From contig MQRK01217395.1 of the NCBI GenBank assembly GCA_001938485.1, positions 23,223 through 74,259 of the forward strand: a stretch of DNA of 51,037 nt, written 5' to 3'. Origin of the DNA: Girardia tigrina. Its lineage: Eukaryota. The translations under genes were made by a program, and so were the position numbers. Shown in pieces: positions 949 to 43,911 of the stretch (positions are counted from its first letter, which is position 1; each line of letters opens with the position of its first letter). The notes under the pieces are model-generated. The model was not told the origin of the DNA. It did no database searches and was given only the letters and a program-made list of their open reading frames with translations.

Positions 949-1216
949 TTAACAATTAATTTTTTTTCACTTTTATGTTTGCGCTTCATTTGCCGCGGTT
1001 TTTTGTGGATGATGATATTCGAATTGTGTAATTTTCGAAAAATAATGTTTTTTGTGTCTCATCTAAATCGAACTAAAATTTCCATTGAAATTCACGTCCG
1101 TGTTTTCCGCTCCTCCTACTACTATTCATCCTCCTGCTCCTCGAAACCACCGTCATATCCTGTGTCTCCTCTCCTCTACACCGCCCGCACCTGTGTTGGT
1201 TGGTTGGTGATTTTAG
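949..1216 (+). promoter_or_regulatory. Extended 3' splice-site region: AG-exclusion zone, candidate distant branch point and CU-rich silencer
   Basis: No AG dinucleotide between 948 and 1215. gttaac/attaat at ~948-960 is followed by a U tract, and a C-rich island lies at ~1097-1195. Confidence 0.7.
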
Positions 1217-1250: not shown

Positions 1251-1952
1251 GTAGGTTTGTTTTTTTTCATTTTTTTGTTTTTTTTATTTTTATTTTTGTT
1301 TTTTACTTTTATTAAAAAAAATTTTAATTTTTTTTGAAAAAATAAAACAAAAACAATTTTTTGTCTTATTTTCGTTTTTTTTAATTTGTTTGTTGGTTTT
1401 AGTTTGATTGGTTGTTATTTATAAATGATTTTTGTATGTCAAATTATCGTATTCTTATTTTTCAAAAAAACTAAAATTTCACTTGATATTTTATTGCCTC
1501 TTTTGAGGAATTGGGAAAATTTTGTATTCATTCTTATTGATTATATATGTTAATTGATTAATGTTTCGTTACTATTTTAATTTTTCAGGTGATTCTTCGA
1601 AGTCAAAAATCTTATGATAAAAGTGCATGAACCATAGAATTAATTTATTTATTGCTGTATATATAATGCTATTGTGTGTGTGGGGGGGGGGGAAATTAGA
1701 GGTTTTTTAGAAGAAAAACATTCTAAAATTAATGGAACTGAGTTTTAGAAGATTGAGATTTTAAGTCACTCTTATAACGTGTTATATCGACAGTGCTGGT
1801 AATAAAGATACATTCATATGCATTTCAGTTTAGGAAAAAACATCGCAGGAAAAACAGGAAAAATCATTTATAAATTCCTAATTATTAATATTTTTCAGTA
1901 ACAAAAAATCATTTTTATCAATTTAATTATGATAAAAAATATTTTATAATTT

Positions 1953-2517
1953 GGGTATAGTTCCGTATGGGCCCCTTCAAAAATAAGTGTTACAATATAG
2001 AAAAAAATATCAGCATTCCAGGAAAAATAATTTTAAAAAAATATTTAAAATGTCTTTAAGTCAAAAAATCTTAAAAAAATACGTAATCACTGACTTCACT
2101 GACTTGTGTATATTTTTAAATTAAACTTGTTTTTTGACTCATTATTTAAAACTATTTTTTATTTATTCTTATTTTTGCATAAAAAATAACTGCAAATAAT
2201 TTTGAAAAATATTCAATTTTAAATACAAAAAAAATTATATATAAAATATATTAAGCATACCTAAAAATATGAAACAAATCATTAAACATTTATTCCATTC
2301 TGAAATCGTGGTGCAAATATTTTCCAAATTCGAATAATTTCTAAAATAAGGCAGTGAAACCAACGATTACGTACTCAACGCCTTTATTTCCCATTGATAT
2401 TTTGTGACTTTAAAAACATTTTAAATAAATTTTTTAGTTATTTTTACTGGAATGCTGATAATTTTTTATATATTTTCGTACCTTTATTTTTACAGGGACC
2501 CGTATGGAACTATACCC
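1953..2517. mobile_element. MITE with long TIRs in the PTBP intron
   Basis: gggtatagttccgtatggg ... cccgtatggaactataccc. Inverted similarity continues inward (atcagcattccag / ctggaatgctgat). Confidence 0.75.
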
Positions 2518-2809
2518 TATAATGATTAAAGATTAAGTTAAAAAAATAAAACAAAAGAAAGTTAAAAAATTGCAAAATTTCAAGACTTATAATTAAAATT
2601 ATAATTTTTATATTTTAGTCATTTTGAATCATTTATTTTTTTAGATTTTTTATTTTCAATAATATCAATATTTAAAATTTTTTATAAAAAACTTATAATT
2701 TTTAGGTCATTTTATTTTTAAAATAAATTTTTCACGATTTTTTAATTATTTAAATAATTTATTCCAATACGAAAATAAGAATATATTAAAAAACCAACAC
2801 AAATTCAAA

Positions 2810-2927
2810 TATATATATATATATATCTATATATATATATATATATATATATNNNNNNNNNNNNNNNNNNNNNNNNNNNNNNNNNNNNNNNNNNNNNNNN
2901 NNTATATATATATATATATATATATAT
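2810..2927. repeat. (TA)n microsatellite spanning an assembly gap
   Basis: TA runs on both sides of 50 N. Confidence 0.9.
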
Positions 2928-3169
2928 TCGAATAAAAATATTTCACATGTTACAAAATTAATGTAAAGCAAAAAGTTACGATAATTAAGTATTATCACAA
3001 TTTTTTGTTTTTTCTGGAATGTTTTTTCAGGGTCCAATGTATCTCTTTACCCAAGGAAGTTGACACTCATTGTGTATTTTTTCCTTAGGTTTTTATTGAT
3101 CAAGAATCATTAGTTTATTGCTTTCCTTATCAATTAAATTAAAAACACAAGCATTTTAGAAAAAAGTAG

Positions 3170-3950
3170 GAAATTTCTCAAAAACGCAGGCTCATGACTA
3201 TTTAAGGCCGCAATTCTTTGAGCAATTGTTCACTGTAACAGATTTCCAGGTTTGAGCAACTCATAGTAAAACACTCCGTTTGCATTCAACCATATGCTTA
3301 ACAGCATCTTCTTTGGAATAATCAGTATGGGAGGAGAGATTGTTGCTTGGCCAGGGTCCACCCATGATCTTTTGCGTTCTGGATTCTCGTAATTCACCCA
3401 TTTTTCGTCACCAGTAGCAATTTCTCCAAATAAACGATTTTCACTAATGACGTACATAAAGCGAGATGCATAAACTCAATCTTTGAGCAATATTTACTAG
3501 AGATAGATGATGTGGCGCCCATCTTTCAGCCTTCAAGATTTACCCATAGTTTGCAATCTCTTTAGAATAGTGGATTGGTTTATTTCAAGTTGTATCGCCT
3601 GCTCACATGTGTTCTAGCCAGTATCATCCATAAGTTCTTAAAATTCGGTGTCCTTCATTTCTCTGGGTCGTACATCTATTTATCCTCGAGCACCATTTCT
3701 GAACTTATGGAACCAAAGCTTAACCGTCGAATAGACCACAACACTATCTTCCTATGTTTGATATATATTTTTATTCTTTGTTTCTGTAGCTTTTTTCTAT
3801 ATGTAATCATGAAAAGCATGCAATGGACGATATACAACTTGCTGGCCTCCATTATTAAACATTTTTTGAAAATGACATGAGTAAAGGAGATTTATTGAAC
3901 ATATAAAAAATTATATTAATTGGGGTCAAGAACTTTTGCATCATTCTAAT
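3170..3950 (-). mobile_element. Degenerate mariner transposon (5' TIR plus truncated transposase)
   Basis: IATGDEKWVNYENPERKRSWVDPGQ...GVFYYELLKPG is Mos1-like. TIR-like tattagaatgatgcaaaagttc on the minus strand at ~3930-3950. Confidence 0.85.
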
Positions 3951-5039
3951 AGTTCATTTCTATGAATTTCGTTCTTTTCAATAAAGTGAAACTACTTTTA
4001 ATAAATGTTTCCATCGATATTAGTTACATGAGACTTACATTTCTTTATTTTTTAGCATTTAAACTTCAAATTGATATTCTTATACATTGATAATGTATCT
4101 TTCATCATTATTTTATTACAGAAAGATATTTGGTTTTAATAAAAGTAATGGAAATAAAATTAAAATCCTTCTGAAAATAATAAAAGTGAATCTTCTGCGG
4201 AAAATAATTTAAAATATGTGAAAGAAAAATTTTTTAATTTTATGTACCATAATATGCCATTTTAAAAAATTTCGATTTAAAAATGGTGGCTGTTTTATAC
4301 CACAATACTTAAGAAAAATGGGTTCAGAATATGATATTTTTTGCAATTTTGGGATCGTAAAGTTCCTTATAGTTCGTGAAAAATGTGTTTGAAATAATAT
4401 TTTTTTCCTCAATCAAAGACCTATAACAATCTAATATGTCTATAAAACTTAGATTTCTGAATCTGTTTCGAGGTTCTTCACATGAGAGCGAAGTTGTGTG
4501 ATTTAAGTCTGTCGTTATTATTTTAATTATTAGTTTTGACGAATTCATTTATAATATATATGAATATAATACTCGGATGTATATATCACCATCAAATAAA
4601 AGGACATTGAATTAGAATTGATTGGTCCTTATTTACTATTTGATTCGATTGATGAAATTTGTCTTTATCACTTTACATTAAAAATGTTTCTATTGGAAAT
4701 GTTTAGGAAAATCCTCGATTATTTATGTCGGGAATCCACGCGGTAAATGAAATTATTGAAAAAAATCGAAATTGTATAATATTGCTCTGTAAAAATGTGG
4801 AATTACAAATATTTATGTTAAAGAGTTTTAAAAAATCAACATTGTACATGAGTGATCACAATCGTTGATCATCTTATTTGTATTGTAATTTATTTTGCTT
4901 TTTATTATGATTTTTTTAATAATTTTATTTTTATAATATATGAGATAACTATTTTTAATAAAATTTAACTTTATTGGTCATTATTCTATTTAAAAATATT
5001 TAATATTGCGATTGCTTTTCTTTTCTAATTTTGGATGTT

Positions 5040-5690
5040 TGGTTATAGTGTCTTATTAGCAGTGATACACAATACAACCTCTCATAATGTTAATCAAAAT
5101 TCTTCTGCAAAATAAAAAATTCATCGTTTGAAATTGAAGTTTTATCTTTGTAACATCTGTCTTGAACCAGAACCTTACTCAATTGTGAGTGTTCACTACT
5201 CCGAGTTTTGAGATGACGATTTATCTCCAATTACATTTGTAAACAAGATTAGTTTTTCCTAAATAGCCTGTTTTGGTTGTCACTGTAAGGTGATTTCTTA
5301 CATTGAATATTACGGACATATTTTAACATTATCGATAGTTTTATAAATGTTATTCGTAGATCTTCTAAAACCCGAATAAAGAATTTTTATAATTTTAACG
5401 GGTTCTCAAACATCATTCTTGGTTTTATAGTGGATTATATCTAGAGTGAATTCCATCTAGCATCAATTTAATACTTTTTTTGTTTATTCTGGTACATATT
5501 ATTATGTCAATGTTTTTTATGACTAACATTAAAAATATAAAAATTCCATATTCAGAAGATTTAAAAATAACATTTATAAAACTATTGATCAATAAAGATA
5601 TCGACAATTTAGTGAAAGCTAATCTTGTGTACAAATTTAATTATCACTGGTGTAAATACTTGTACATTAGAGTTTCCATAATCCTGCATG
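5040..5690. mobile_element. Penelope-like GIY-YIG endonuclease fragments in opposite orientations
   Basis: Minus strand: KTNLVYKCN...RHLKTRSSEH...FILQKNFD.HYERLYC. Plus strand 5520-5690: IKIPYS...KANLVYKFNY.WCKYLYI. Confidence 0.65.
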
Positions 5691-6084
5691 CTTTTTACAG
5701 AAGTGGATTGTAAGTTCAAGCCCTCCATACTATGCTGGCTAGCACCCTAACAAGGCAAGCTTTCGACACTAACCTTGAGAAGAGAGAGCTCTAGTTTCCC
5801 AGGGACACCGCGTGGAGGTATGTCCGACCAGCTTAGCACAGGTTATCAATGTAATAGGTCCCCATATTCAGCTGAGTACTATATACCGACTCAGGTTCTC
5901 ATACTCTATATGAGTCATTTATGACGGGTTAGTGCTGTATGATGCCGCCCTGGGGAACAGGCCTACATTGGACAGACAAATCGTCACCTCAAACCACGGA
6001 TTAGTGAACACATCATCGTAATAGTCAAGTAGATCGAGCGAGCCTTCCCCAACTGTAACGGATAACTGTATATTAAAAATAATA

Positions 6085-6460
6085 CTCAGCATTGGTGCAC
6101 AGGGTAGTGAATCATAGACTCTGCATCGGGTAAAAACCATTTGACAAATACAAAGTTTTCTGATACTTTCACACGGCTTCAGATGCAAGATTGCGAGCTT
6201 ACATTGGACAGGCACACTTCGGCTTCCCTCTGAGAAATGACCAATCATGTTCCTTTGTTCCCTGATTCTAGAGACTTGGCTGTTTAAACGCACTTTATGC
6301 AACTGGGAAATTGGAAATGAAATACTCCCTTATGCGTAATATTATCCAGCGTAAAATTCAGGATTACACTAGGAATTACTCTTTGACAGTCCTCATCAGT
6401 TACATCGACATACACTTGGCATATCATGTTCCGCGTTCTAGTTCAAAATTCCAGTACGTC
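6085..6460. repeat. Dispersed repeat, diverged copy of ~44830-45080 (probably retroelement-derived)
   Basis: Shares gcacagggtagtgaatcat and cacggctt..gatgca.gattg with 44845-44940. Stop-rich in all plausible frames. Confidence 0.5.
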
Positions 6461-6464
6461 TTTC

Positions 6465-6680
6465 TGTCAATAGTTTTATAAATGTTTTTTGTAGATCTTC
6501 TGAAACCTGAATAATGAATATTTATAATTTTAACGCGTTCCCAAACATCATTCTTGGTTTTATAGTGGATTTATTTAATTAATTAATCAATTAATTTTAG
6601 CATCAATTTAATATTTTTCTTTTTGTTTATTCATGCACATATTATTATGCAAATGTTTCTTATGACTAACGTTAAAGAAA
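6465..6680 (-). mobile_element. Second Penelope-like fragment, direct copy of ~5335-5530
   Basis: tagttttataaatg...gtagatcttct...aaacatcattcttggttttatagtggatt occurs at both sites. Confidence 0.7.
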
Positions 6681-7109
6681 CATTGCTATCTAGTCTTTCT
6701 TCCATCACCGAGTGGGCCTCCCATCTCTTTCAATGGTATTGAGCCGTAAGCTCTTTAGAGAGTCCACCACAATTAAAAAGCAATAACAGCTCCCCGATAG
6801 GCCTCCTACGAGGTTTTCAGCTTTCCACTTACAATGTCTTTTCGGACCTCCAGTAAAAACGACCAACCATGTTCGGATGTTCCATGATTTAGCATTCCTT
6901 GTGCCGTTCCCGTGGACAGTCAGTGAAGGGACAGTTTGAAATTTCCTTTTTCAGATAAATCCGATAAACGGAAATTTAGCACTTATAAGGAGATCATTTC
7001 CGAGAGATTCTTTGAAACATTCATATCGTCTACCACTCCAATCGCTATCACAACAGTCACCTGTTTTTCTTGAAGTCTCCTATTGATGCACTACCGACAC
7101 GGATAAAGG

Positions 7110-7270
7110 TTCTTGTCGAGTAATGTTCTTGAACACTGCAAATTTTGCAAAAAATCAATCATAAAAGATTGATTTTCTATTTTCGAGAAGAATTTCGATT
7201 ACCATTATGAGAGGTTGTATTGTGAATCAGACACTACAGCCCAATTGATTAACATTCAAAATGGGAACAG
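7110..7270 (+). mobile_element. Penelope-like endonuclease C-terminal fragment
   Basis: SNVLEHCKFC...FSIFEKNFDYHYERLYCES, matching the minus-strand copy at ~5060-5130. Confidence 0.6.
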
Positions 7271-7561
7271 CAAAGGGGCCTCAATATTTATCAAAAAAAT
7301 TGAACTTTAATATTATTTTCTTAAAAAATATTTTCCAAATATTATGAAAAAATTAGAAAACAAAACAAAGTCGCAGAAGATGATCGAAGATTGTGATCGC
7401 AACATGTTCAAAGTTGATTTTCGAAAAAACCGCTTTAAAAACTTCTAAAACCTTCAAATTATTGATTAATCTAGTGTAAATATATGTGTTATATCACTGA
7501 TTATTGATTATCGAGATTATTTTTATTCATCGAAAATTGTTATTGTGTTGTATTTCCAAAG

Positions 7562-8010
7562 GCGTTTACGGTGACGTCATGCGGGTGAAAGTGATGTTTA
7601 ATAAGAAAAACACGGCGCTCGTTCAGTTCGCCAATCACCAGCAGGCTGTGACTGCCATTAGAAATCTCGACGCGTGCTTTCTCTGGGGCAAGCAAATGCA
7701 TCTGCACGTGTCCAAGACCAATGTGATCCAGTTGCCGATGGAGGACGCCAATCACGGCTTGACGAAGGATTATTCCAACTCGACTCTGCATCGTTTCAAG
7801 AAGCCCAATTCGAAGAACTATCAGAATATATTTCCGCCGAGTCCCGTGTTACATTTGAGCAACATTCCTCCCACGACCTCGGAGGGCGAATTGTCGGAAA
7901 TGATTCGAAATGCCGGCTTCGATGTGAAGAAATTCAAGTTTCTACCGAACGATAAGAAGATGGCGCTGCTCGAGTTGAACTCGACCGAGGATGCGATCCA
8001 TGTCTTGATT
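7562..8010 (+). CDS. PTBP: PTBP exon encoding the rest of RRM3 and most of RRM4
   Basis: aaag|gcgtttacggtgac gives GVYGDVMRVKVMFNKKNTALVQF...LTKDYSNSTLHRFKKPNSKNYQNIFPPSPVLHLSNIP, hallmark PTB sequence. Donor att|gtattt at 8011. Confidence 0.95.
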
Positions 8011-8067: not shown

Positions 8068-8139
8068 GAATTTCACAATCATAAACTGTCGGACAAGAAT
8101 CATCTGCGAATAAGTTTTAGCAAAGCTGGGGCATTTTAA
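8068..8139 (+). CDS. PTBP: PTBP terminal exon (EFHNHKLSDKNHLRISFSKAGAF*)
   Basis: Acceptor ttttcag| ends at 8067. The HLRISFSK C-terminal motif of PTB RRM4 is followed by TAA, with AATAAA at 8166-8171. Confidence 0.92.
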   Translation, partial: EFHNHKLSDKNHLRISFSKAGAF

Positions 8140-18371: not shown

Positions 18372-19081
18372 TTAGCATGTATTCACGATCTTTTTTCTTT
18401 CGCTCCATTTCTTTTGATGATGATCAAAACAATTTTTTACTAAAGTAAATAAATATACAGTGATTGCTCTCTAAATTGAACACTAATGTGAATTTTTATC
18501 ATGTGTTCAATTTAGGGAGCGTTCAATTTTTGGTGCGACTACTATATTGAATTTTTTAACTTGTATTCGTATATAATAACTTGTATTGTATATATAATTT
18601 TTTTGTGTAATTATGAATTTTTGAAAATTTCTTGTTGATTGCTGTGGATTATGAGTTGTGGGGTCACAACAGAATAAAATAATAATTGATAAAGTAAAGT
18701 TTTTCTTAATGCATGTGCTTTGAATTAAATTGGTATAATAAAAATTCATTTGTTAACACAATAGTAAAACTTATTGATGTGACCTGTGTCACCGATATCG
18801 GTCGCGTAAATTATCGCGTCCGTCCCGGTCAAATGTGTCGCCCACAGATTCCGACCACACTTCGGATCGGGAAATTCCGAATAAATCGGCAGGGATCGTT
18901 CTCTGTACTGGTCGACATTGAAACATCGGGGATCGTATTGGGCCGTTGCCAAGTTGTGGCGACGATTCGCGATCAGATATTTTCGATAATCCGGATCGAC
19001 GGATTCCCGTTCGAATTCCATCGGCAAACGACCGATAACAAATCGATAAAACCAAGGTAGATCATCCTGTTTTCCGAGCAT
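18372..19081 (-). CDS. Putative two-exon gene, ~121-aa protein of unknown function (exons 19081-18784 and 18439-18372)
   Basis: GC-elevated ORF from the ATG at 19081. Donor cag|gtcaca and acceptor tactttag| are phase compatible (…YATDIGDT-VKNCFDHHQKKWSERKKIVNTC*). Minus-strand AATAAA near 17880. Confidence 0.5.
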
Positions 19082-26875: not shown

Positions 26876-27561
26876 TGTAGTGATCTTCTCAATCAACCAA
26901 AAAAATCCGATTCGAAAAATTGGATTAGAAATAAAAGGCCCGGATAAATCAAAAAAATAATAAAAACAATAACCTTATGAAAATTATTATGTTGTTGTTT
27001 AATCGTATTAATTGAAAAATAAAATATATTGCACAACATGGTCTCTTGTTCGATTTGATTCAATACAGACACTCTATGCTATTTTTAAACAACATTCTCG
27101 CCGCGGGCGTGAGTTTACCGCACGGTCCGTCTCACCAGACGTCGCTCTACTTCATGGTCGCTGTCTACTGCGATCCCACCGGTCCATTCCGACGGGTTCT
27201 AACCGTTCGCCTCAGGACACAGGTCGGTCCCTACCGATATTCAGACTTCGCGCCGGGTCTGCGCGCTCCGTCCCTGGTGGGTCAACCGATCGCCGAATCC
27301 ACCAGAACGCTCCCCTCGACAGACGGTATCGATTCAATTGATGTGCTGTCGGGGATTGAGATCCCCGCCCAACAGTCGATAGGGGGATCGATCGACGGTC
27401 CCGTTGATCCTTTCGGTGGGGCCAATCGACCGAACGAACCGATGATGGACTGGCTGCACCCACGACTCGTGTCGACTGACGAGACACTGGTTGGTCCGGC
27501 GTTGCTTCTCACGTTTGAATGGCTGGGAATCCGGCGACTTCCGTTGGATGTCAGACCCACA
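26876..27561. mobile_element. Solo LTR (686 bp)
   Basis: TGTAG...CCACA termini and a 5-bp TSD atgat/ataat (1 mismatch). Removing it restores the interrupted repeat. AT-rich then GC-rich layout resembles the LTR at 43405. Confidence 0.8.
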
Positions 27562-27657
27562 ATAATGTTTATAAACATCGAAACATGTCCGATAAATATA
27601 TAAAAAAAGCTTTAATCAAACTATATTTAATGAGTGATCTTCAACCAAATATATATA

Positions 27658-34746: not shown

Positions 34747-35521
34747 CTATCAAGAACCCGATTCCGGCGACCAGAACTTCAATTGTGTCAAAAATCAACA
34801 CGAATTCGATTCCGGCGACCTCAACACTCATCTATTTCTCATCAGCAATGCCGATGACTCGATATGAGCCAACAATCGCCACCGATCGTTTCTCTGTGGA
34901 TGCCGACAGACAACCAGGTTGTCACAATCAATTCCTTCGATCTGGAAACTGCATTCTGGTTCATCAAATCAACCCTCAACTCTATTTACTGAGACTCCGG
35001 ATACCGACAGCCACTGCTAAACTTTCGACGCTTACTGACACAGCGGCTCTTCAGGTTTGTCCGATTGATTTTGGCATTTCTTCATTGAATACTAAATTAT
35101 CCGGAAATTGTGTCTTCGACATTTTATATAAATATTTTACTAATTTTTTCTATAATAATTCCTCTAATAATTACATTAATATTAAAAAATCTTTATACGT
35201 GATGGAATGGTTTGATTTTTCGGGGGGAATTGAGTGACTATAGATGCTTTTCTTTTTCTCTGCGTACAACACACATGGCATCACGTTCCCAACCGTTAGT
35301 TATCACATAAATATTTTCTTAAGCATGACATCGGGAACATGTGAATTATCTGTGGCGGTTACATCATCGATCAACGACACCATCCTCTTATTATCACACA
35401 TTCGCGGTTATCAAATCTGGTTGTCTTGGCACACAAAACCATTGCGTCCACACCTCACATGGCTTGGCTACGGTATACAGAATCAGTCCTACATAACTGT
35501 TAACGATACTATACCGGGGGG

Positions 35522-36455
35522 ATGAATGACTCAACGACACATTTACAAGACATCAACGCCATTTCACTACCACCAACACCGCCACCGTACTTTTTAGACA
35601 AAGACGGAACACCACAAGGTTGGTTAAGAATTCTGGAAATGAGGTTCCACATACAGCGAATCACTAGCCAAGTCGCCATGTTCCACCATTCATTATATGT
35701 GATTCCACCCGAACTTCTGCAATCTGTTTCACCACACATTACGACGATCGGCACACACGATAAACATTTTGAAGAATTAAAAAAACACATTCTCCGATGT
35801 TTTCAACCTTCAATCGATGAAATTTTTGCCACATACTTCAAATCACAACACATCGGTCACCAGAAACCATCTTACTTTTTAAACAAGATCGTGACAGACT
35901 TAGAAACTATACACCCAGGAATCACTAATGGACCTCATTTCGATCTACTTAAGCGTTTTTTTTCTGCGGTCACTTACACCACTGGCTCAAGCCGTTCTTG
36001 CTGGCACTAATGTCACCGATCTTACTGAACTTGCCAAAATTGCAGACAAGATCATGGCCACACAACCGACCGAATCAAACACATGTTTTGCTGTGAACAC
36101 ACAATAGTCACAATTAACCTCAACCACACCACCAGATACACTCTCTACATAAATTGAGGCATTACAGACACAAATGCAAACAATCACGACACAAATAACG
36201 GCACTCAGTGCCATGAGGTCACGAAAATCCCATCAGAGACGTCCAACAACAAGCCAAAATAGATCACCCAGTGCAAACGTGTGTTGGTATCATTCGAAGT
36301 TCGGTCGAGAGGCAAGGAAATGCCTGCCAGGATGCACCTGGAAGGACCAAACAAACGAATTTGAAATGGACACAGTCTGTGTTCATCACTCCCGTCTAGG
36401 GGATCAGGCGAAACGATGCGCGCCTGGCTGTACTTATAAGTCGTCAAAAAACTAG
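35522..36455 (+). pseudogene. gag: Gypsy gag (disrupted) with two CHCC motifs
   Basis: PPYF..GTPQGWLRILEMRF..ITSQ..MF; CWYHSKFGREARKCLPGC and CVHHSRLGDQAKRCAPGC. Frameshift near 35960 and stops near 36105 and 36150. Confidence 0.85.
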
Positions 36456-39400
36456 GTTCGTCTTCGGTCTTCGCAGCCGACACAGAAGACGATGATAAAA
36501 GCAGCGGAATTTTCGAGTGCGATGCTGCCGTTACCGCTCCGCACACTACCAGATTGACATTTTTAATGGATACGGGCTCCGCCATCTCAGTCCTGCCAAA
36601 AAGCGTGCAACCACAAACTCGACGCACAGTCTCACGTCTTCTGGCCGCCAATGGTTCAATCGTTCATACCTATGGTTCAGTCAGCATGTCATTTAACCTC
36701 ATCCCGCTGGACAAACTTTTCCAATAGACGTTCACGGTTGCCGACGTCACACAGCCGATTCTCGGGGCAGATTTCTTCGCCCACTTCGATTTGCCCGTAG
36801 ACTACAGGAACCGGAGACTTTTTCCACTTCAACAATCACACACCATCCAGAACTCCAGTGTATACGTTGTTGTCTAACCCCAATCAATTCATTGAGCTAA
36901 ACTTTCCCAACATCGTTGGTAACTCCACCGTGAGCTCATTCTCGGGTAGTTGCATATCAAACCACGTGATCATCACCAAGCCATGTGGACCCATACGACA
37001 ACGCTGCCGGGAACTATTTCAAGAACGACGAATTCTTGCCGAGAAAGAATTCTCTGAATTCGAAACTTCTGGCATTGTACGACGCTCCAGTTCACCGTGG
37101 ACAGCACCACTCCAGATCGTTCCCAAGAAGGATGGTTCCATCCAAATATGCGGCGACTACAGAGGGTTGAACCAGGTCACAACGCCTGATTCATACCCGA
37201 TGCCGTTAATCACCGACATTTTGCAACGTTTTGCGGGGTGCAAAATCTTCTCGTCACTCGATTNNNNNNNNNNNNNNNNNNNNNNNNNNNNNNNNNNNNN
37301 NNNNNNNNNNNNNTTGGCCAAGGCTTACCACCAAATACCAGTCGACGAAGCATCCATTCCAAAAACAGCCGTTGTCACACCATTTGGCCTTTTCGAATAT
37401 CTCCGAATGCCATTTGGCCTGCGCAACGCCTCACAGACATTCCAGCGCCACATCGACAGCGTGCTCCACGGTCTGTCAAACACAGTAGCATACGTCGACG
37501 ACATCGTCGTAGCTTCACCCGACGAAGACACACACCAGCAGCACCTGTCTGAAACACTTGCCAGCCTCAACGAGCACTAGCTCAAACTAAAACTTCAGAA
37601 ATGCAAATTCTTCCAGACACAGGTCACATTCCTAGGACACATTTTGTCAGCCGATGGCATCCGTCCTCTACCGGATCGAATCAAAGCCATAGCCGAGTTT
37701 CCCCGACCGGAAACAGTCACATCCATGCGCAGTTTTCTCGGCCTGGTTAATTATTGTCGCAGATTCATCCCACANNNNNNNNNNNNNNNNNNNNNNNNNN
37801 NNNNNNNNNNNNNNNNNNNNNNNNNNNNNNNNNNNNNNNNNNNNNNNNNNNNNNNNNNNNNNNNNNNNNNNNNNNNNNNNNNNNNNNNNNACTCCACAAC
37901 ACTCAGATACCCGGACGGATCACTGCCAATAACCTTGACGACTGATGCATCGAACATCGCGATCGGAGCGGTCTTGACACAGATACGCGGAAACACACCA
38001 GAGCCACTGGAATTCTACTTCAAGAAGCTATCACCAGCTCAAACCAGATATTCCACGTTCAATAGAGAGCTCTTGGGACTATTTCTCTCGGTGAAACACT
38101 TCGAAGATCTCCTTATCGGCAGATCTTCGACAATACTCACCGACCACAAACCGCTTCTGCAGATCTTCCAGATGAAGAATCCTTCACCACGTCAACAGCG
38201 GCAGATCAGTTACCTCTCACAATTCGACACTGACATCAAATTCATCGCCGGNNNNNNNNNNNNNNNNNNNNNNNNNNNNNNNNNNNNNNNNNNNNNNNNN
38301 NNNNNNNNNNNNNNNNNNNNNNNNNAAGAAATACTGGAACAGAACCCTCCTTCGGACAAGGACCTGGCCATCTTCAGGGAACGACCAACTGCACGTGGTC
38401 GCATCTACTTTGACACTTCCATCGCAGGATGTATACGTCCCGTTTTGGGCCCGCCCTCCGTTCTGTTGCATTCAAGGCAGTACACAACATAGCACACCCG
38501 GGTTCCAAGGGGACCTTCGAACTCTTGCGTACTAAGGTCATCTGGCCATATATGCGGCGAGATGTCAAGTTATGGTGCAAAAGCTGCCTATACTGCCAAG
38601 CCAACAATACGGGCAGACACACCAAACCACCAATACTCAACTTCCCAAGCAGCAGTCATTTTGACACCATTTACATGGACATTGTCGGTCCCTTACCATC
38701 GTGCAACGGATACTCCTATCTTCTGAACATCATTGACAAAAACACACGCTGGCCAGAAGCGTTTCCGATGCGAAATATCACCACGGAGTTAGTCGTCAAC
38801 ATTTTCGTTGACAACTGGATAGCATGATTTGGCGTTCCCAAACGACTCATAACTGATCAGGGACGTCAATTCGAATCCAACATATTCAATGACCTCCTCA
38901 ATAGACTAGGTACACAACAAATAAAAACAACAGCGTTCCATCCGCAGTCTAATGGCATCGTTGAAAGGTTTCATCGCACACTCAAGAATTTCTTAAGGAC
39001 TTTGGCCGCCGCTAAGGACTGGGTCAAACAACTTCCTCTCATTCTACTCGGGTGGAGGAACACTCCCAGCAGCCGCCACGGCTCCTCGCCGGCTCAAATG
39101 CTGTTCAATTCAAACACTTCACTTGTGAACGAATTATTCTTCAGTGACAGCCCCAGTAACGATGAACACTTGGAACAGGCACGAAGGTATTTCAAAAATT
39201 TAGATACTTCATCATCATCGCAAGACGCCTACAAGGTTTACGTTCCCAAGGACCTGAAAAACGCGAAATTCGTCTGGTTAATTCGAGAACACCCCAGCTC
39301 TCTACAAACCCGATACACCGGTCCCTACCGCATGCTTCACCTGGACGTGCAGAACAACACTGCGACCATCAACTACAACGGCACACGCCGCGTAGTTGAC

Positions 39401-39550
39401 ATATGCAAACTGAAGTCATGCATTCCCATTGAGGACGACTCAGTCGAGACGCACATAGCCCATGGTCTTACCCAAAAACACAAGACAGTTCGGTTCTCTA
39501 CATGGGTGCAATCATCCAATACCACCCTTCTCAGTCCTACAAAACCATAA
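36452..39550 (+). pseudogene. pol: Gypsy pol (PR-RT-RNaseH-IN), disrupted
   Basis: FLMDTGSAISVLP; SSPWTAPL..CGDYRGLN; YVDD; TTDASN..ELL..TDHKPL; H..AHPG..C..C; DIVGPLP; TDQG; NGIVERFHRTLK; YTGPY. Several stops, frameshifts and N gaps. Confidence 0.93.
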
Positions 39551-39578
39551 GAATCATTTCACCGTCTCCAACTTCTTC

Positions 39579-39590
39579 AGGGGGGGCTTT
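39579..39590 (+). promoter_or_regulatory. Polypurine tract
   Basis: agggggggcttt immediately before the 3' LTR. Confidence 0.8.
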
Positions 39591-40249
39591 TGTGGCGCTT
39601 CGATTTTCCTTGAATAATCAAATGATTTAAATTTTACAAATTTCAATAATGAAAATAACATTCAAATTTTTTACTATTTTACTTAAAAAATTATTAATCA
39701 ACTAATTTATTCGAAGCACATTTTCCTATAAAAAATTATTCAGAAATGCCTAAATTAGTTGGAAAAAAAATTTAAATCAAAAAAATAATTAAATCAACGA
39801 AAATAAAATTCAAATAAAAAAACGTTTTTTTGTTTGAATAAACAGAATTACCGAAAATGTCGAAGTCAAAAACTGTAGAACAACGAGGGATCTCAATCGC
39901 AAACGAATATTTTCATTTTAATAAATTTTGTAGCAGGGTTCTTTACCTTTTTTATTTCCCTCACACGAGAAGGGTGATCGAGCCCACTACAACAAGTATT
40001 AAAAAAACGAAATGACTTTCGGAACAACCCAATATAATGTTTCTTTTGTTAATAATTTCGATTTTAATTGCAGATGTCAAAACGTGATTTTTGCAACATT
40101 TACTTCTACGAGTTAGCTCGATAAAGGGGTACCTCGCGAATTGAACGGAAGTAAAAAAAATCATCGATTTGAGGTGTCTCCCGCACTTCTTCTGTGTTGT
40201 ATTTAAAATAAGCACTAAATATTATGTACTAAATATTATTCTTTTCCTA

Positions 40250-43200
40250 TCACAATCACTACAGGCGTCCCTATACACCGTTTCTCGACGACTCAGGGCA
40301 TCTCTCTGCGGTTGATAGACACCGATTTGACCCTCCAGCACTATAACTATTCACACGGGGGATATCATGACAATAATCTCTATTTAAACCGTCAATGGAC
40401 TCCTGAGGGTCATTACCACACACACAGAGCAACCAATGACATAATACTACGGATTTAAACTGCTCAGGTCCAACGTTACGCCAGAACAATATGGGATGAT
40501 TGCCAATACGATAATTGTTTTTCACATCCTTCTGAGGCGGAGTTACCCCAACCATGTTACCAATATCATTGATGACACATAACCATTACAATCACCTTCC
40601 ACAACTGAGATACATACCTTAACACTGCTGAAAATGCCTTTTTTTCTTGATGAGGACGGCTAATCGCGCACCTGGCTCGGATTGATGAATTTCCGTCTAA
40701 AACCTGCAAAAAGTCAACACTCGCGATTTCAAAATCTCACAGCCACACTACCGGTGGAACAGCTGCGGACCATGAACAGAGAGCTGTCGACAATCATGGC
40801 CCACGATCAGCCGTACGTTCAACTGCGCCAGCAACTGTTGAAGGTGAATTCCTAAACATTCGATTAATTTTTGTGCAGTATTTCATAGTTCAACCGATGG
40901 CAGATTTGAAGCCTACTCAATTTCTGCAAAAGACTATTTTTGAACTTACTACCGGACATTCACAGGATGATACTGCTTGTTTCCAACAACAAAAATAGCG
41001 GACAAGATTTCGAGCACAGTCGGACATTGAGTGGAGTACTGTTATTCGACCACACCGAAGACCACAGATACCCGTCAGACGGCCAGTTCAAGCGCTCAAG
41101 AGGGCTCACGTGAAACTGAACTTGCACTCTCAAAAGAACAGATAGCTGAGCATGACTGCCATCAGCCGAAATCACGAGAACCCTCATGAACACACCCTGG
41201 CACTCAGCAAGACTGTCACACAGGCATCACAGTCTCACTTAGCAATGTCATTTGATATTCGTCAACGTGATACGCTACCGTTACCACCAACGGTTTATTT
41301 AAATAAGGCCACATGACTGTGTTGCTTTCACCGTCGATTTTGCAATGCGATAAGGAAATGTCAACCAGGCTAAACCTTTAGCTGCAATCGCTCACAACTG
41401 TAGATCACGGATGTGTGTGTCTGGCACGCCTTATTCAGTGTCGACACCAGGATTTGCGCACCCGGGTTCGCACACTTTGACCCAAAAAACTAGTACGACC
41501 TCTCGTCCTCACAGCAAATGAGATGGTAGAAAACAACTGCTGCGACATCTTCACATCCGAGGCCCCAGTGAGAGCGCCCATCAATAGCGACCTTTGTTTC
41601 CTTATCGACACCGAATCCACCGTTTCCATTATTCCTGAGACGTTCACGTTAAGCTGGAAGCGACACCCGCAGTACCTTACAGCCTCTAACGGCACCACAG
41701 TCTACGCTAAGTACTGTCCAGCTCACAATTATGTTGCACCAATTGAGAAATCAGTTCACTTGGACATTCACCGTTGCCGGAGTGACACAACCAATCCTTG
41801 GGGTGAAATATCTTGGAACACTTCAGGATCTTGGTCACTTGCAGCACTCAAACTCTCGTGACCAAGGGGCATTGCAGAATTGACGAAAACTACCAACAGG
41901 AACCGGCAGTCACAATAACAATCACCACAGAACATTCAATCAACGCACTGGCTGCCAACACAACAATACAGATTCGCGAGAAACTTCTAGGCCTGCTGGA
42001 TGACGCAAATACTGACAAACCTACGGCTTGTGTGTCAACACACGTAATCACAACCACAAACTATGCTCAAGTTCATCAACCTCCTAGAAAACTGTCACAA
42101 GTAATCCGAACACAGGCCACAGAAGAATTCGGAAGATTGGAGGTAGCTGGAGTCGTCCAAAGCTCATCTCCTTAGGCCGCTAGACTTCAGGTAGTCAAAA
42201 AGAAGGATGGATCGCTAAGGATCTGCGGGGACTACCATGGAGTCAACAAGGCAGTGGCAGATTTAGCTNNNNNNNNNNNNNNNNNNNNNNNNNNCCCTGT
42301 TGGATTCTAAATGGCGCCCCTAGATGACTTTTATAAATGTGTAGTTTTGTGTACAAGAATTAGCTGCATTATGATTAAGTTTCATCCTTTACACTGAGAC
42401 AAGGTCTGTAATGCAGAAGAACTAAATGGATTTGTTTGGTATGTATTATTATCGTGTACACTGCAACATATTGCTGCTGATGCTTTGCTATTTGTAATAT
42501 AACCATGTCGTGTTGTTAGACATAGATGATGCAGTAGGCTAGCAGGCATAATATTTTTGGGCAGTGGAGAATACTACTGAGACTTAAGATTTCACTTTCC
42601 CCTTGCTGCTTGTACAAGTTTTGTCCGTCTATAAAGTCAAACGGGGGATAATACACTCCAGTTACACTCTACACTACAGCCATTTATTAATATTAAATAT
42701 ATCCGGCCGAAGTAAACCCAAATATTATTAAAAGTAGGTAATTATGACGGGTGAACAAAACTTCATTATTTTTAATAGTTATGTATTTTTTGGTGCTTTT
42801 TACCGCTGGAACAAGATAGCGGGGAGCGTAAAAATCGTGTATATTATAGTATTTACTCAATATTGAAATTAGTAGGGCTAGTACTACCTTTATCCTTTTT
42901 GGCGCCCCTGAAAGTTTTCTCGCCACCCACGCACCAAAATCTAAATCCGCTACTGCAACAAGGTCACTGTACCTAACTCATACCTCATGCCGTTGATAAC
43001 TGACACACTCCAGCGTTTTGCAGGGTGTACGGTATTCTCGTCACTTGACCTGAGCAAGGCGTAGAACCAGATCACAATGGACGAGGTACCATTCCCGAAA
43101 ACCGCCGTCACTACGTCATTCGGTCTATACAAGAGCCTGTGTATGCCGTTAGGGCTTCGAAAACATTCCAGAGGCTCATTGAAATAGTAACATTGACACA

Positions 43201-43911
43201 GCAACACTGCCATCACACCACCACAACACAACACATCACACACAAACAGACACACCAACCAAATCGAACATAAACAATACAACACTGCAACACACCGCTT
43301 TTCGAGGAATATTCATACTCGCACCCCTCCGATTTCTAGCAGCTCTCTCCAACGCCACACTCACCGTGCTCTGCAATCTTCGGTAGGGACTCAGGAGGGG
43401 ATTTTGTGAAAGGAAAATTAAAAAAAAACAATTTAAAAAAATTGTAACACTTAAATTAACTATTGTTTTAATAATAATTACGTAAAAGTGTAAAGGTTTA
43501 AATTTTTGAATGAAAAATAAATGTTTTAAATCGGAAATAAATGTCGACTCTCATATTTGTTATTTTTAATAATATAAAATGACAAACCACAACATCATGC
43601 GGGACCCACGAGATTGTACCGCTCAATATTAACTCTAACCGATCGGACTGAACCCGGTACCATCACTCCCTATCCGACGGTGTTCAACAGGTTGACATGA
43701 CCACACCAATCGGACCGACAGAAACTGGATGAACACGACGATCACGCTGCTTACTACCCAGTGACATAACGAACCAGTCAGACAGAACCACCACGAGTTG
43801 GTCGCGTGACCGACATACGATTAGTTTCGACCGGTAGTCACTGGAACCGATTGGTACACAACCACCATTGAACCGACAAGCTGATCTTTTCGGGCACCGA
43901 GTCCCGGCACA
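40250..43911 (+). mobile_element. Second, decayed and internally deleted Gypsy element of a related family, with 3' LTR (~43405-43911)
   Basis: gag remnant PFFLDEDG, protease FLIDTESTVSIIP, RT KKDGSLRICGDY..NKVT..SYLMPLITDTLQRFAGCTVFSSLDLSKA. PPT aggaggggga precedes TGTG at 43405. The LTR end is uncertain (43911 or 43934). Confidence 0.85.
42252..42955. mobile_element. hAT non-autonomous element inserted in the Gypsy RT
   Basis: TIRs cagtggcagatttag / ctaaatccgctactg and perfect 8-bp TSD caacaagg (42244-42251, 42956-42963). Removal restores DYHGVNKVTVPNSY. Confidence 0.9.

Follow-up and report, generated by a model that had tools for sequence, protein, structure and literature searches.

The 51,037-nt stretch of Girardia tigrina DNA analysed here (the window; the host genome is 1.43 Gb) carries a PTB gene in which a 34-nt exon follows an intron whose 3′ half is devoid of AG, and the question that this locus raises is what that half of the intron does. 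The intron very likely belongs to a PTB exon-11 feedback cassette, that is, one of unproductive splicing, and we think it probable that its AG-free half is PTB's own feedback switch, made up of a distant branch point and a C-rich patch. The principle is already established, autoregulation having been shown in human and C. elegans; a 34-nt ptbp cassette is on record for S. mediterranea.

Spliced protein alignment bounds the 34-nt exon at 1217-1250, between an exon ending at 722 and exons at 7562-8010 and 8068-8139, all on the plus strand. The upstream exon (496-722) encodes the RRM2-3 linker and the start of RRM3, ending in LVTNLNAE; besides the alignment, a contig start with a loose end at 496 and the 722-1217 joint support it. 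No exon preceding 496 was found in the contig, where an N gap sits at that place. The GT..AG intron of 494 nt (723-1216) is seen as a joint in all four sequence runs, which we presume to be RNA, with 28-30 letters on the short side. After the 34-nt exon (KSNPDALFTLF-G) come a downstream intron of 6,311 nt with transposon remnants inside it (1251-7561), the RRM3-RRM4 exon (7562-8010) and the last coding exon (8068-8139). Exon 7562-8010 encodes a product whose ten best protein matches, 57-63% identical, are PTBs of trematodes and cestodes. The original prediction had likened the 34-nt exon to PTBP1 exon 11, and the spliced alignment bears this out: size, phase and position are the same, making it the homologue of PTBP1 exon 11 and of ptb-1 exon 11.

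The genome holds about four PTB paralogues. A published Smed-ptbp-2 primer encodes MEDANHG, the exact peptide of the window gene, with nucleotide mismatches at 4 of 22 positions, and the ptbp-1, -3 and -4 primers, as translated peptides, loosely resemble the loci L014, L015 and L016-L018. From these matches we read the window gene as the likely orthologue of Smed-ptbp-2. Its downstream intron contains a Mariner-type transposase remnant (PF01359; 3230-3850, minus strand) and, at about 1950-2520, a multi-copy element with opposite-strand joints. Further along the window, open frames at about 35200-43300 are broken by stops and N gaps; we take them to resemble the protease, reverse transcriptase and integrase of LTR retrotransposons. 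Two GC-richer open frames in the AT-rich DNA (18746-19081, minus strand, and 27016-27603) have no Pfam match and are possibly exons of another gene.

The AG-exclusion zone is exactly as predicted: the flanking AGs lie at 947-948 and 1215-1216, and none occurs in the 266 nt between them (949-1214). The elements placed at its 5′ edge, GTTAAC (948-953), ATTAAT (955-960) and a U8 tract (960-967), are all there. As an AG gap on the plus strand it is, narrowly, the longest in the window (268, then 267, 254 and 231). At least 266 AG-free nt lie upstream of 11 of the 8,024 AGs in 104 kb of the genome and of 3 of the 1,038 acceptor-like YAGs in the same 104 kb, test sites included. Control introns were defined by spliced alignment and comprise, besides 13 further introns of the PTB family, those 57 of 118 myosin introns whose flanks passed an identity filter. 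In the 16 of these 70 that are at least 200 nt long the AG-free zone measures 12-105 nt, none exceeding 105 nt. That the zone exceeds chance and is selected is supported.

AG is most clearly short in 949-1096, which has 0 where 5.8 are expected (P=0.0006); inside the C-rich patch the shortage is weak (0 against 2.3, P=0.07). The first part of the intron, 723-948, is likewise AG-poor (3 AG against 7 expected), so the precise 5′ limit of the zone carries less weight as evidence. Here a second long AG-free run of 167 nt with a strong U tract spans 780-948 and closes at the AG at 947-948, so that 780-1214 contains one single AG. This last upstream AG, with the U-rich tract 5′ of it, is a possible cryptic acceptor, from which the exon would be 302 nt long and open in frame. 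A coding use of it was considered and rejected: the frame of 949-1250 is open and meets a stop three codons into the next exon. Among 15 joints listed of 40, none uses AG 947-948.

Long zones also precede the paralogous 34-nt exons, with 276 AG-free nt in L014 (intron at 2135-2611, reverse strand; the same in L019) and 163 in L015 (intron at 2553-4727, reverse strand). The intron after the exon is 89 nt in L014 and 57 nt in L015. The fourth paralogue is divergent and lies on three near-identical contigs, L016, L017 and L018, in which its 34-nt exon was not found. Among 80 metagenome PTB loci, L134, from an unrelated animal, is the only one with both introns; its 230 AG-free nt are the longest of 314 gaps there, and it carries a canonical CU tract at the place equivalent to the patch. 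It is very improbable, in our view, that the zone is a vestige or a compositional accident before a now constitutive exon. Such a reading could appeal to the 267-nt AG gap elsewhere in the window, to the length of the next gap upstream (780-946) and to the fact that no skipped form of the window gene was seen in the stretch examined, which lacks the downstream exon, but a long zone recurs in three of three assessable paralogues and in L134, the composition falls outside all controls and a related species conserves the sequence without gaps.

To locate the branch point we used a motif trained on the control introns, which is weak in that 1 of 40 shuffled sets did equally well. Between −12 and −35 the controls carry a weak TRAY signal (55 of 70, against 44 when shuffled; TGAY, 25 against 12). 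No TRA occurs in the test intron from −128 to −8, whereas 66 of the 70 controls contain one in the −12 to −35 region. The best proximal branch score of the test intron, −1.9, is lower than the top score of any control, the lowest of these being −0.29. The usual region lacks a branch-point-like motif, so the branch point probably lies farther from the acceptor than the usual 40 nt. The original prediction was to this extent right, but its site at 950-960 is one option among several. A952 and A959, which with the U8 tract make up 948-967, are the sole YTRAY matches in the zone and fall outside the top ten of the weak model, whose top scores go to A1012 and A1015 (1007-1016); A1066 and A1076, in two CTAAA motifs (1062-1077), remain as well. 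We give the use of 952 or 959 a slight edge over that of 1012 or 1015, and the latter a slight edge over a site in 1066-1094, none of the three being more likely than not. Since L014, L015 and L134 have good proximal candidates, at −29, −23 and −24, a long AG-free zone alone is no proof of a distant branch point. In human exon 11 a proximal candidate at −51 is unused, according to passages of PMC1431707. The cleanest branch-point candidate of the whole set is a TACTAAT at −145 in L015, barely inside its AG-free zone.

Between these candidates and the acceptor lies a C-rich, A-poor patch of UCC repeats (1097-1195), and the three C-rich strings that had been picked out are present in it (1111-1122, 1131-1142 and 1165-1177). 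C makes up 43% of the patch and A 13%; in the remaining intron upstream C amounts to 9-14%. A density of 43 C per 100 nt ranks at the very top of 18,510 sequence windows. None of the 16 long controls comes near the final 120 nt of the intron (12% A, 37% C), their ranges being 20-53% A and 3-23% C. The patch has few C runs longer than two and stops 21 nt before the exon, the last 21 nt of the intron being without C; a UG-rich segment (1192-1209) replaces the usual A/U-rich acceptor flank, and this UG-rich, A-poor flank is common to the three paralogues. The patch is single copy in the genome, by a method that does not prove rarity, and a repeat origin was rejected on that ground. A structured RNA was also rejected (no excess folding, z=0.16), as was a known RNA family, two Rfam matches being far under the gathering score and neither of them on the patch.

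A cross-species comparison had been proposed as a check of the patch, and for the 3′ half of the zone it could be made with one relative. Of the 144 positions in 1100-1243, 7 are changed in this related organism (run X10) and no gaps occur (about 95% identity; one species, one run). The segment is as conserved as coding exon, the exon pieces in the same run differing at 5 of 75 and 8 of 119 positions. In run X5, from a closer organism, introns differ at 11 of 226 and 12 of 295 positions against 3 of 227 for exon, about three to four times more. Scaled by this ratio, the neutral divergence for X10 would be 15-20% and the conservation has a P of 0.002 to 2e-5, becoming non-significant if the neutral divergence is 10% (P=0.09). 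The patch and the L014 intron share a series of words in the same order, TCCTCCTACT, TATTCA, ACCACC, CTGTGTCT, TACACCGC and TGTGTTG, though the chain is modest (P 0.006-0.057 across nine settings). No word chain was found between the patch and L015, and the best single local alignment with the L014 intron is non-significant, 95 and 225 of 500 shuffles being as good.

The patch had been described as CU-rich. It is C-rich, and UCCU is enriched in the zone (8 against 2.5 expected; 0 of 500 shuffles), but the canonical UCUU, CUCU and UUCU are depleted (2 against 9 expected). YCUY/YUCY show no excess over composition (18 against 19.5). CYYCY is a PTB motif; it is enriched relative to the whole zone (10 against 4.1) but not within the patch, where 6.7 are expected (P=0.11). 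Human PTBP1 takes all pyrimidine triplets and many that contain G, and disfavours A (passages of PMC3907290). By composition the A-poor UCC-repeat patch is compatible with PTB as a candidate reader.

Enrichment of UCC repeats together with depletion of UCUU/CUCU would also suit an enhancer, in which the patch is a C-rich tract for poly(C)-binding proteins (PCBP/alphaCP, hnRNP K) that aids a weak acceptor. C-rich tracts bound by alphaCP drive mammalian cassette exon splicing (PMC4797308), and inclusion dominates the junctions seen for the window gene. We nevertheless consider an enhancer improbable, given the scarcity of C runs longer than two, the 21 nt without C before the exon and the canonical CU tract of L134, and given that PTB represses all tested homologues in the source passages; we infer that the patch may rather be a silencer.

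MBNL had been put forward as a second reader. Five YGCY sites are indeed found where they were predicted, at 982, 991, 1108, 1135 and 1182, and MBNL is a major planarian splicing regulator (passages of PMC4978528), but the five compare with 4.17 expected (P=0.39) and the paralogues are also at chance level (4 against 3.5 and 2 against 0.9 expected). GCUUGC, given as the planarian MBNL-1 motif in passages of PMC4978528, is absent from the zone, and a change at 1136 in the relative of run X10 removes the site at 1135. MBNL is therefore unsupported as a reader, and a zone read jointly by PTB and MBNL through CU-rich and YGCY motifs is highly unlikely.

It is also quite unlikely, if slightly less so, that PTB plays a minor part and that the exon answers mainly to BRULI/CELF acting through UGU motifs, or to planarian proteins that bind YCAY or UGG. 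The UG-rich, A-poor acceptor flank of all three paralogues speaks for such factors, as do the counts of TGTG (5 against 2.1, P=0.05) and YCAY (8 against 4.7, P=0.03) in the zone, both uncorrected, and in neoblasts BRULI, which binds UGU, favours the retention of introns (passages of PMC4978528). However, UGU as such shows no enrichment (12 against 10.3), BRULI motifs are mostly downstream of regulated exons (passages of PMC4978528) and YCAY has no enrichment in the paralogues.

The consequences of failed splicing were followed in silico. Skipping of the 34-nt exon shifts the frame and leads to a TGA at 7586-7588, well 5′ of the last junction, which lies 422 nt downstream, while retention of intron 723-1216 leads to an in-frame TAA at 744-746. 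Past that stop, in the upstream half of the intron, an AATAAA at 830-835 is followed by A-rich sequence, a possible site of intronic polyadenylation or of oligo-dT priming. In the comparison with contigs of the runs, which covered a stretch without the downstream exon 7562-8010, the 722-1217 inclusion joint predominates among those seen. In run X1 the intron is covered by contigs over its full length, and in run X15 over most of it, at a depth above that of neighbouring introns. The depths of this intron, the spliced form and the downstream intron are 475, 5,489 and 84 in run X1 and 53, 516 and 11 in run X15, and those of the intron and the spliced form are 1,377 and 5,685 in run X10; contig depths cannot rank parts of a gene. 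The intron contigs extend less than 31 letters past the acceptor and were therefore not counted as bridging, and the gaps in cover at 881-1212 (X5) and 964-1046 (X10) prove nothing. The cover and the depths are a hint, no more, of retention of the upstream intron.

We inspected nine of the 80 metagenome PTB loci, chosen for an alignment that starts no earlier than the 34-nt exon. Seven of them (7 of the 80) join the flanking exons directly, exactly without the 34-nt exon; these contigs (L071, L080, L096, L107, L122, L124 and L130) represent several animal groups, and one is tapeworm-like, 85-90% identical to tapeworm PTBs. L125 keeps an AG-free piece of the upstream intron while its downstream intron is spliced out. 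L076, L077 and L105 are PTB genes in which neither end of the 34-nt exon borders an intron; as L076 sits in a 58 kb contig, its lineage may have lost the switch.

Several features of an exon-11-type cassette occur together here: a 34-nt exon at the homologous RRM3 place of a PTB gene, a long AG-exclusion zone, conserved upstream intronic sequence (in one relative) and skipping that ends in an early stop. The AG-free zone and the patch probably make splicing weaker. In the feedback that we favour, a branch point far upstream would have the conserved C-rich patch downstream of it and ahead of the acceptor, and PTB bound to the patch would block the acceptor. A blocked acceptor would lead to exon skipping or intron retention, and NMD would then degrade the mRNA, so that PTB would limit its own production. 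We infer that PTB is the reader, that it represses and that NMD follows, as well as where the branch point lies. Going further, at least three planarian paralogues might keep this ancient switch and have rebuilt a PTBP1/PTBP2-like cross-regulation tuned between neoblasts and differentiated cells, with the neoblast-enriched ptbp-2 relying on a non-canonical UCC repeat and mainly on upstream-intron retention over skipping, a scheme that we regard as speculative and unlikely as a whole.

The cis-architecture of PTB feedback exons mapped in vertebrates, an AG-free zone with a conserved patch, is here extended to a flatworm and to three paralogues of one genome. Our literature search, with subscription papers and bioRxiv supplements outside its scope, found nothing on flatworm cis-elements of this intron, on AG exclusion in planarians or on planarian ptbp-2 RNAi. 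Planarian regeneration is blocked by ptbp RNAi (PMC4603911, PMC4978528; passages), and the level of Smed-ptbp-2 in neoblasts is raised about five-fold, so the element would be a defined handle on stem-cell splicing control.

Among the closest known systems is the S. mediterranea cassette SmeEX0004078 (34 nt, human match 'ptbp1'), described in PMC4978528. Like the window gene it combines a planarian PTB gene, a 34-nt exon and a long upstream intron (389 nt, against 494 nt). It is skipped more in differentiated cells than in neoblasts, with PSI values of 90.6 in X1 cells, 88.8 in X2 and 69.1 in Xins. Its downstream intron of 70 nt is closer to those of L014 and L015 than to the 6,311 nt of the window gene, and on these intron lengths SmeEX0004078 may belong to another paralogue. 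The C. elegans ptb-1 exon 11 is also a 34-nt cassette, of the same phase and position in RRM3, whose skipping gives an NMD isoform dependent on PTB-1, and the passages of PMC4876481 that describe it contain no AG-free zone or branch point; unlike C. elegans, the planarian has about four PTB paralogues, which could cross-regulate. In human PTBP1 and PTBP2, PTB-dependent skipping is coupled to NMD (passages of PMC1940037). Compared with these human genes the AG-free zone is shorter (266 nt, against 381 and 438 nt in human and 590 nt in Fugu; passages of PMC1431707 and PMC1940037), the planarian intron has no branch motif of TACTGAC grade and carries a UCC-repeat patch instead of UCUU/CUCU, and its background is AT-rich with weak splice signals. 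What the locus shares with PTBP1 exon 11 and PTBP2 exon 10, as described in the same passages, is a 34-nt RRM3 exon behind a long AG-exclusion zone, extended upstream conservation, and skipping that leads to a frameshift and an early stop.
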